A DNA stretch of 17,219 nucleotides, taken from a virus. Lineage: Duplodnaviria; Heunggongvirae; Uroviricota; Caudoviricetes. The stretch is from IMG/VR virus record IMGVR_UViG_2547132273_000010, one strand, 5' to 3'. Positions 6,001 through 9,000 of the stretch are shown one piece after another; the stretch's first letter is position 1; every line of letters begins with the position of its first letter. The position numbers are program-made.

Positions 6001-9000
6001 AGTCTTCAATTTTTTTGCCCCTGACTTCACCTCCGCGCACAGTAGCTTCCCTGTCAGTAGAGACAGTTGTTTCAGATTCAGGTGCGATTGTCTCAGGCTG
6101 CGGGATGTCACGATTTCCTCCGGCCTGTCGACGTACTTCTGCCTGCTGTGCGAGCTCAGGCAATGAGTTACGAACAGTTCGGGGAAGCTGATCAGGCTGA
6201 GGCATACGGACATTGTGTGTAATGTCCGGAGCCGGTAGCCCTTCACGTACCGGTGCTGTCGCGTTCTGCGCATCCGGTGACGGCAGACCACGACGAACCA
6301 TTTCACCCTCGAGTGTTTCCCCCTGGCGACCAGCGGCGTTTTCCGGTGCCGGAGCTTGTCCTTTCTGGAAACTCTGGCCCTTAACCTCACCGGTTGTGGT
6401 AAAACGACCACCACGTCCGGCCTGATTTTCATCCGGCGTACGCGCCACTTCTCCCGGTAACGGATATCCCTGTCCGGGATGAATATCGCCGGGAGCGGGC
6501 AGGCGCGGACGCTCAGTTAACTCCTGTGCTGTCGGACCGGCATCACCTTCAGCCATCTGTGAACGTACAAGCTCCTCCGCCGTCGGCGCGTTGCCACGGG
6601 CAAGGCGGGCCTGTACCTCCGTATCATCCCCCGTGAAACCACGGAATCGCGGGTCACGCATGAACGCGGGCTGCTCCATCGGGTCAGCATCAGCAATACG
6701 CTCTCTGTCAGCCAGGGTGTTAATGGTTTCCGTTGCCACATCTTCAGAGAACGCAGGATTATCCATTTCAACGGCATACTGATTCTCGCCTTTCTTCACT
6801 ACGGACGGTTTCAGGCCGGTGGCGGCGGCATTACGGAAAACATCACTCCCCATGGCGCTTTTCTCATCCGTGAAATAACGGTTGTCCGGGCGCACCTTCT
6901 CAATGCGTTCCGCTGGTCTGGACGCACCATTCCCGTTAATTTCAATGCGGACTTCATTCGGGTCCCGGAACCGCACCGTCGGGTAAATGCTCCCGTTACC
7001 ATCCTCCGCATTTTCAGGCTGTGACTGTGCTTCCGGCGTCACTTCCTGTTGTGGGCGAATGACTTCTCGTATTGCCTGAAACTGTTGTTCTTCAGTCTCG
7101 GTGCGCCCCTCTTTCTGGCTGAGTCTGCGGTATTCCTCAAGCAGTTCAGAACGCGGCTTCGCCTTCAGCTCATTCATCACAGCCTGTCGCTTCGTCTGTT
7201 CGTCCAGTTCATTCAACAACTGGCTGGCAGCTTCCCGGCGATGAGCTGCGGATGCGTCACCCTCTGTTGCCATATCCGCATCAGCATACTGCTCCAGAAG
7301 CTGCTCGCGATTCATGCCCTGCATGGATTCACGCTGCTGCGCCACCGGATCAACAGATTCTGGTTGCGGGGCTGCGTCGTCCTGCTGCACGGTTTCAGCA
7401 TCACGCATGGCGGTTTCTTCTGCGGCCTGACGTCTGCCACGATATCCGGCAACCGCACCGAATGGAGCCCCCATCGCAGCACCAAGGGCAGCACCTTCGA
7501 TCGTTGCGTCAGCCACGCCCTCCCATGGCGATACATCCATTCCGGCGGTCTCACGCAATGCCGTGTTTTCCTGATAGCGTGAATAGCCGCCCTGCGCCGC
7601 ATTAATCGCCCCCTGTGCAGTGGCATTTCTGACAATGCCGCTTTTAACGGTCTTCGCTGTGCCTCGTGTCACCAGATTAAACAGTTGTGCGTCACCCAGT
7701 TTTGCCGCCATGGCATTCACAGCCAGCAATTCAGGATCGGTTGCCAGCTGCGCGCGCACCTCATCGGCAACACGCTCTTTTGCCAGATCCATTTTCTGGC
7801 GATCAGTAAGCTGTGCGTGCTGCGGGTCGGCGTCAATGGACAAAAACGTCTGCTGAAATTTCGGTGACTGCGCCAGCTCAGAGTAATCAGCATTAAGAAC
7901 AGCATCTGCTGCCGCCATTGCACTCTGCCCCTGTGCACTTACAGTGGAATGGGTGATCAGGCCCGCCTGGAATAAATCCGGCATTTTTTTATCGACAGCT
8001 TCTGCTGCCAGTGCCGTGGCTCTTTCCGGCTGCATCCCTGCCGCGATGTATTTTTTCTCCAGCCCGGCGGTCAGCATTTTTCGCAGTGTGACATCACCCA
8101 CCTTTCTAGCCACACCGCCAGCAACCATATCAGGTACAAGCGCACCAATCAGGTTTACACCCTTCGCCACCCAGACCGCAGAATCATTATAGCCTTCGGT
8201 CATCGGCGTATTCAGCGCACGAACTGCACCCGGCGACATCTTACCGGTCAGCCATTCATCAGTGGCTTTGGCACCATCACTGACAGCCTTACCGGTTGCC
8301 TTCAGACCTTTACCGACAGTATCAGTAACCGCGTTTTTGCCATCAGGCAGGGTATCGATGACCTCATCAGCCCCCCTGCTGCCACCGGCAAAAATATCCT
8401 GCACAGTTGCGACACCCGGCAGCCCCATACGGCTAAACTCATTTAAAATACGCGCCCCTGTTTTTACCGGGCTCTGAATCATCGCATCACCGAGTCCACG
8501 GGCCATTTCCCCTGTTCCCCGGACGGACTGGGCGAAACCTTTACCCATTGTTGGCAATACATCGCCCAGGCTGAACGACGTACTGTTATCCTTCCAGCGA
8601 TTCGGATCAGAGAAAAATGCTTCATAGCTGTCAGTTTCGCCGGGTTGCTGAATGTTCAGGCTGTTACGATTCTGGTTACCGAGTTGCGCCTCAGGACGCT
8701 GTTCCTCTGAATAGGCCATACAGACTCCATAAAAAAACCCGGCACAATGGCCGGGCATCAGGAAATGGTATTAATGGAATATCGTGAATTACTGGGCGTA
8801 ATTCTGTTTCAGTCCACGGATAAACTGAGATGCAGATGAAGCACTTTCATCTCTGGCCTGTTCCCCCCTGGCCTTTTGAATACGGAGAAAATTCGCATAC
8901 CCGTTCTCCAGCAATTTCTGATTCTGAGGTTCCAGCATTTCAGGCTGACGGGCCGCTACATTTCTGGCAAATGACAGCTTATCAGGATCATCTCCCGCCC

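Follow-up and report, generated by a model that had tools for sequence, protein, structure and literature searches.

The stretch of DNA analysed here (the window) comprises 17,219 nucleotides (nt) of a Caudoviricetes genome, IMG/VR virus record IMGVR_UViG_2547132273_000010, and immediately upstream of a giant gene coding for 2793 amino acids (aa) it carries a hairpin followed by a U-tract, here called T1. We consider it likely, with a probability of about 0.7, that T1 is a functional Rho-independent terminator, at which unmodified RNA polymerase stops in lysogens and through which Q-modified polymerase passes. The initial annotation of this DNA had described a canonical intrinsic terminator, a hairpin plus seven U residues, placed directly against the ribosome-binding site (RBS) of the giant gene, and that description is confirmed by the sequence, by the predicted fold and by conservation in relatives. 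T1 was previously unannotated; elements of its kind are standard in lambdoid late operons.

In addition to locating T1, we were able to define its anatomy on the minus strand, which carries all of the genes in the window. The element reads 5'-GAU GCCCGGC CAUUGU GCCGGGU UUUUUU AUGGAGUCUGU AUG-3', and its stem consists of the pairs G8756-U8737, C8755-G8738, C8754-G8739, C8753-G8740, G8752-C8741, G8751-C8742 and C8750-G8743. The stop codon of the preceding gene, which codes for 421 aa, occupies 8791..8789 and the T1 stem begins 32 nt later, while the ATG of the giant gene occupies 8719..8717, 11 nt downstream of the final U of the tract. Thus, the 69-nt intergenic gap is made up of a 32-nt spacer, the terminator and the RBS. 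The stem ends 9 nt before the Shine-Dalgarno (SD) sequence GGAG, which lies outside it. A folding-energy calculation, a check that the initial annotation had proposed, gave -13.6 kcal/mol for the hairpin (z = -3.1), a value matched by one in 200 shuffled sequences. T1 ranks among the best matches in a terminator scan of the window, and its d'Aubenton-Carafa-type score is 29, the same value as that of the phage's own tR'. The element is unidirectional, as the opposite strand has no T-run. Four features by which an intrinsic terminator is recognized are therefore present at T1: a G+C-rich stem-loop whose stem and loop fall within about 5-14 bp and 3-8 nt, respectively, a U-tract that begins within 0-2 nt of the stem, a co-directional intergenic position after a stop codon and evolutionary maintenance.

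The start codon of the giant gene has been placed inside this hairpin in two reference annotations, as an in-frame ATG at 8758 begins the 2806-aa model of the gene in RefSeq P13374 and in the 933W record (L0134). In relatives, this ATG is replaced by ATA or ACG; it is not conserved, and the ATG at 8719 is therefore the likely start.

The evolutionary maintenance of T1 was assessed across 79 related loci, gathered from phage records, IMG/VR and metagenomes, in which the upstream protein is 74-100% identical. A hairpin with a run of seven to nine T residues before GGAGTCTGTATGG is present in every one of the 79, and GGAGTCTGTATGG is invariant across all variants. The stem occurs in three versions (GCCCGGC/GCCGGGT, ACCCGGT/GCCGGGT and GCCCGAC/GTCGGGC), and all of the substitutions preserve pairing: the closing G.U has become A-U or G-C, one C-G has become U.G, and one G-C has become A-U through changes on both sides. 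When 11 distinct variants were compared, 76 of 76 comparable cells were paired and two pairs had changed on both sides, against 24-44% pairing in slid controls. The 32-nt spacer beside the stem has about 50% identity between lineages. These patterns, which come from about three independent lineages, are good evidence that the structure of T1 has been under selection. Scans of genome, viral and metagenome collections for more distant relatives returned only sequences with at least 74% identity in the upstream protein, and the family appears to be confined to Shiga toxin (Stx)-type podophages of E. coli and Shigella.

A loose terminator pattern showed no clear enrichment (24 found in the window versus 16.9 +/- 4.5 expected), and a strict definition was therefore applied, which demanded a hairpin of at most 30 nt with a folding energy (dG) of -10 or lower, followed by eight nt that start with TTT and include at least six T residues. 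Four terminators in the window satisfy it, all on the minus (coding) strand and three of them in the few intergenic gaps. In 100 dinucleotide shuffles the same definition found 0.51 +/- 0.73 on both strands together and 0.24 on the minus strand (maximum 2), so that strict terminators are enriched approximately eightfold.

Polymerase that has been modified by Q is known to ignore downstream terminators. The window corresponds to positions 43515-60681 (reverse strand) of phage P13374, with 99.98% identity. In that phage, q (22717-23151), the tR' hairpin (23856-23875) and stx2A (position 23934) all lie outside the window, and the late genes form an unbroken same-strand array from the Q/pR'/tR' region to the giant gene. 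The late operon is approximately 37 kb long, with T1 approximately 28 kb downstream of tR'. Transcription of Stx-phage late genes is known to proceed from pR' via Q antitermination (PMC7547250). On the minus strand between 12998 and 8757 no promoter site reaching a 9-of-12 match was found; the interval from T2, the next terminator upstream (Table 1), to T1 contains three 8-of-12 promoter-like sites (four spacings). The 11 nt that follow the U-tract offer no space for a promoter, and therefore every mRNA that carries the giant-gene RBS has been transcribed through T1.

Published expression data are consistent with this layout. In phi24B, the giant coding sequence (CDS), CM7 (49148-57571), rises significantly after norfloxacin induction, and lom (CM18) is expressed equally in lysogens and in induced cells; the late behaviour of CM7 surprised the authors, since CM7 lies downstream of lom (PMC3342100). 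Furthermore, Hfq-CRAC of uninduced cells recovered sense-strand RNA from the intergenic region between lom and ECs1237, and so there is upstream transcription in the lysogen phase that needs a stop.

We propose that, in a lysogen, polymerase lacking Q would stop at the terminators of the late operon, among them T3 (directly downstream of lom), T2 and T1. Such polymerase could come from leak-through at pR'/tR', from the promoters of lom and of a hok-like moron, or from weak internal promoters, and the 8.4-kb giant gene would be kept silent by these stops. On induction, Q would load onto polymerase at pR' and make it resistant to terminators; the late transcript would then cross T3, T2 and T1, and the giant protein would be made and packaged into virions. 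We infer both the termination of unmodified polymerase at T1 in vivo and its read-through by Q-modified polymerase. T1 would adjoin the RBS simply owing to the minimal intergenic gap of a compact genome, an account of its position that fits better than translational control. The initial annotation had suggested that expression of the giant gene could depend on read-through or antitermination. Such dependence is well supported, if indirectly, by the layout, by the Q/pR'/tR' system and by the response to induction; what does not stand is the idea of a special device for the giant gene, because about ten co-directional terminators are found along the late operon.

This became apparent when the whole P13374 genome (L084 plus L001) was scanned with the strict rule, the energy cut-off being loosened to -9 kcal/mol. 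Between pR' and the giant gene (+ strand, 23856-51973), the late-operon strand has approximately ten strong co-directional terminators (Table 1), including one after the portal gene (36166-36185) and one after ORF61 (39007-39025), at the end of the scaffold/capsid block. T1 therefore exemplifies a feature that recurs throughout the operon. Three of these terminators are set against the RBS of the next gene, namely T1, T2 and the one at the ORF61/ORF62 junction, where the order is hairpin, T5, ATCCGGGGAATTAT and ATG. The deposited P13374 start of ORF62 (39017, locus L084) falls within the hairpin loop at this junction (hairpin 39007-39025); the ATG at 39044 is likely the true start. The recurrence of the T1 layout upstream, which the initial annotation had placed at 11450-11471, was also verified: the T2 stem (11473..11454) is followed by T6 at 11455..11450, although the distance from the U-tract to the ATG at 11431 is 18 nt, a stretch that carries AGGGGG, compared with 11 nt at T1. 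In relatives the T2 stem is invariant and its flanks are variable. Similarly, the T3 stem is nearly invariant (one variant has a loop change), and the spacer upstream of it diverges. T3 has the features of a moron-cassette terminator, and a candidate promoter lies just past it at 12307..12279. The GenBank record of GER2 (L003, 6545-6556) labels the T2 U-tract, GTTTTTTGTTAT, as 'attR', which looks like a spurious repeat call.

Table 1. Positions of T1, its neighbours and the late-operon terminators (window coordinates, except for the P13374 rows).
Feature	Position	Strand	Description
Giant gene, 2793 aa	338..8719	minus	Full-length match to PHROG_616; Pfam domains LPD5, LPD1, MuF_C and LPD38; homologue of Sp5 ECs1242 / phi24B gp47
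Giant-gene SD, GGAG	8725..8728	minus	Separated from the U-tract by 2 nt and from the ATG by 5 nt
T1 U-tract, U7	8731..8737	minus	Directly 3' of the stem; first U able to pair with G8756
T1 hairpin	8737..8756	minus	7-bp stem with 6 G-C pairs; 6-nt loop 8749..8744
Upstream gene, 421 aa	8789..10054	minus	Homologue of Sp5 ECs1241 / ORF79, PHROG_601; T1 comes after its 3' end
Gene 3' of T2	10775..11431	minus	Homologue of Sp5 ECs1238 / ORF76, PHROG_611; heads the packed run of genes ending at T1
T2 hairpin	11454..11473	minus	8-bp stem, G11473..C11466 with G11461..U11454; 4-nt loop; -15.0 kcal/mol, z = -4.5
T3 hairpin	12314..12332	minus	Directly 3' of lom; moron-type terminator
lom	12356..13090	minus	Moron in low-GC DNA; upstream of T3, T2 and T1
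P13374 terminators		late-operon strand	tR' just upstream of stx2A; after stx2B; near the holin start; after Rz; after portal
P13374 terminators, continued		late-operon strand	After ORF61; after lom; inside the ECs1237 homologue; T2; T1

Several observations weigh against the view that T1 serves as a Q-sensitive lysogenic stop. T3 and T2 already separate T1 from the known lysogen-active promoters, with only weak 8-of-12 matches between T2 and T1, and therefore the insulation that T1 adds in lysogens may be small or redundant. The selective reason for T1 is also less obvious, as the gene upstream of it is no moron. T1 does not have the marks of a moron-cassette terminator: the 421-aa gene is essential, its GC content is ordinary (0.48-0.50 versus 0.40-0.44 in the lom region) and no 9-of-12 promoter is nearby. 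It is not, therefore, a classical moron terminator. Moreover, insulation of morons does not explain the terminators after portal and after the capsid block, and so the hairpins may also act within the late transcript; a compatible second function may be as barriers to 3' exonucleases, which set the stability of the mRNA segment by segment. Finally, a 1-nt deletion in P27 shortens and weakens the T1 stem (-6.5 kcal/mol as projected, -9.3 kcal/mol when refolded), and the covariation in T1 rests on only about three independent lineages.

Several alternatives to a terminator read through by Q-modified polymerase were considered. The hairpin might serve chiefly in mRNA stability or processing, by blocking 3'-to-5' exonucleases on the Q-driven late transcript, stabilizing the ECs1238-1241 segment, uncoupling the giant-gene message and setting protein ratios. 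The strong hairpins after portal and after the scaffold/capsid/ORF61 block, where there is no lysogen-expressed moron, suggest a role of this kind within the transcript, and the T1 stem is conserved by pair-preserving changes; but a stability element does not need a tract of seven to nine U residues, and the T-run has been kept in every relative. We regard stability as the main function of T1 as possible but doubtful. We think it improbable that the terminators act as shapers of expression within the Q-driven transcript, with partial stops or decay barriers stepping down the mRNA dosage and, at T1, a pairing of the spacer with the SD and AUG that couples translation of the giant gene to that of the 421-aa gene. 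The initial annotation had also raised the possibility that the hairpin and U-tract modulate ribosome loading, and this found no support. A translational device could work through the U-tract as an S1-binding enhancer, the U-run being 2 nt from the SD, or through the same coupling by spacer pairing. With RNAalifold, a spacer motif, CCRUUAAUAYCR (8777..8766), pairs with UGG of the SD and AUGG of the start; 99 of 99 cells pair, five positions on the 5' side vary by pair-preserving transitions only, and the motif starts 11 nt past the stop codon, where a terminating ribosome could reach it. However, the terminator stem excludes the SD, the outer helices contribute only -4.7 to +1.4 kcal/mol and bring no gain, or a penalty, in the third lineage, the partner of the SD in single-sequence folds changes from lineage to lineage, and the 81-nt region is no more structured than shuffles (z = -0.9). 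The helix between spacer and SD/AUG was, in addition, derived from the same sequences that were used to test its pairing, and true covariation in it cannot be scored because its 3' side is invariant for coding and RBS reasons. Translational tuning is accordingly very unlikely. Two structural ideas of this sort were rejected, namely masking of the SD by the terminator stem, because GGAG lies outside the stem, and the long-range helix between spacer and SD/AUG as a conserved structure, because it is energetically negligible, or unfavourable in one lineage, and its SD partners differ.

T1 could also be the terminator and Hfq-binding module of a small RNA (sRNA) released from the 3' untranslated region of the 421-aa mRNA. 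A hairpin with a long U-tail is the classic module for the proximal face of Hfq, and Stx prophages are rich in Hfq-bound sRNAs, two of which map to the window on the opposite strand. Nevertheless, ECs1241 is absent from the Hfq-CRAC tables both as a CDS and as an ECs1241-ECs1242 intergenic entry, the reads on ECs1242 are mainly antisense, conservation upstream of the stem is poor and no seed is obvious there, and Rfam gave no match at T1 or at T2. No sRNA was called at the junction, which is weak evidence because that screen left out sense-strand peaks within 100 nt of a CDS. We regard an sRNA origin as highly unlikely. The notion of a functionless chance hairpin can draw on the loose terminator pattern, and is contradicted by the eightfold excess of strict terminators, by their confinement to the coding strand and preference for intergenic gaps, and by a hairpin and T-run that persist in all 79 relatives, with pair-preserving substitutions only, beside a diverged spacer; we consider it exceedingly improbable. 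A competing antiterminator structure upstream of T1, of the kind expected for an attenuator or riboswitch, was looked for and none was found, and the 32-nt spacer that precedes the stem is poorly conserved. A small AU-rich hairpin at 8804..8786, spanning the end of the 421-aa reading frame at its stop codon, was likewise rejected, being weak (-5.4 kcal/mol) and lost in one sub-lineage. The spacer motif CCRTTAATAYCR (8766-8777, minus strand) is conserved in an otherwise diverged spacer; it complements the giant-gene SD and start codon, and the pairing is thermodynamically marginal.

The window itself comes from a short-tailed Stx phage (Sepvirinae; Stx2, 933W/Sp5/phi24B type), in which it forms the distal end of the late region. 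The 701 nt around T1 match the Stx2 phages TL-2011c and P13374 at 100% identity, and VT2-Sakai/Sp5 and relatives at 99.9%. The genes are, in order, those for an internal virion protein, a tail fibre and a membrane protein; lom and a hok-like locus come next, followed by four small genes and those for the 421-aa and 2793-aa proteins. From T2 to T1 they lie close together (gaps of -4, 9 and 10 nt), and only the gap that holds T1 is sizeable. The giant protein carries LPD5, LPD1, MuF_C and LPD38 domains and is thus a 'polyvalent' protein. It is abundant in phi24B virions and has been proposed to be an ejection protein (bioRxiv 10.64898/2026.04.10.717836). In Sp5, infectivity requires both ORF79/ECs1241 (the 421-aa protein) and ORF80/ECs1242 (the giant protein) but not the genes that lie between lom and ORF79, and deletion of ORF76 lowers lysogenization (PMC5155283).

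Some further observations concern these neighbouring genes. A hok/mok-like toxin open reading frame (ATG 12123; window 11983-12300, minus strand) lies between lom and the next gene, carries the RefSeq label 'MokW-like' and is distinct from the published hokW-sokW locus on the far side of the giant gene; Rfam gives a weak 'sok' match at 12110-12272. Antisense to the leader of this hok/mok-like frame is the Hfq-bound peak EcOnc53 (window 12162-12214, plus strand, assuming a coordinate offset of +142), and antisense within the giant gene is the Hfq-bound candidate sRNA EcOnc36 (window 3085-3167, plus strand), which was detected in five of five datasets (Tree et al. 2014). ECs1242 is 17th among Hfq-bound CDSs, mostly through antisense reads. 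At window 11800-11823 there is, on both strands, a near-perfect palindrome, ACGCCTGC-CTTAAAAA-GCAGGCGT followed by TTTGTTTTGA, which resembles a terminator (-13.9 kcal/mol). It lies within the coding region of the ECs1237 homologue, and as a conserved terminator this hairpin (11823..11800) was rejected, because a few relatives break its pairs and its conservation may be due to coding alone. A G+C-rich hairpin, GCCCCGTACGGAAGTGCGGGGC, at window 308-329, is found 8 nt past the stop codon of the giant gene; since it has no U-tract on the gene strand, the late operon ends without a canonical terminator. Lastly, a 552-bp contig (L007) in the assembly of Xanthomonas pisi DSM 18956 codes for the first 136 residues of the 421-aa protein with 98% identity, and is probably contamination of that assembly by E. 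coli phage.

This study accounts for a published puzzle, in that T1 would explain why the giant gene of phi24B acts late despite lying downstream of the constitutive lom. It also flags start codons that have been mis-set inside terminator hairpins in the reference annotations of medically important Stx phages. Otherwise, T1 belongs to the routine regulatory elements found in lambdoid late operons and opens no new question.

The closest parallels to T1 are in the Q-antiterminated late operons of lambda and of Stx phages, with their pR'-tR'-Q arrangement. T1 resembles the terminators of these systems in its hairpin and U-tract, in being co-directional and in lying downstream of q, pR' and tR', and the gene downstream of it is likewise expressed on induction only. 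However, tR' is a regulated switch just after the promoter, whereas T1 is one of many passive barriers, approximately 28 kb further on, which Q-modified polymerase would read through. The terminators of morons, such as the lom and bor cassettes, offer a second comparison (Juhala et al. 2000, as cited in PMC4104026), and T3 is exactly of this type. T1 shares their form and their presumed job, the stopping of lysogen-phase transcription that would spill into the late genes, but the gene ahead of T1 is essential and of ordinary GC content, and no cassette promoter was found. In P22, the tailspike gene 9 lies beyond the immI region and a terminator, and is reached by late transcription that has been antiterminated by gp23. 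There, too, an essential gene for a virion protein comes last in the late operon, past accessory genes and terminators, and its expression relies on processive antitermination, although the genes and the phage group differ. In T7, the T-phi terminator lies between gene 10 and genes 11-12, and partial read-through by the T7 polymerase sets the stoichiometry of the products. Like T1, T-phi is an intercistronic terminator directly ahead of essential virion genes whose expression depends on read-through; but T7 uses its own polymerase and reads through only in part, whereas read-through of T1 by Q-modified host polymerase is expected to be nearly complete.

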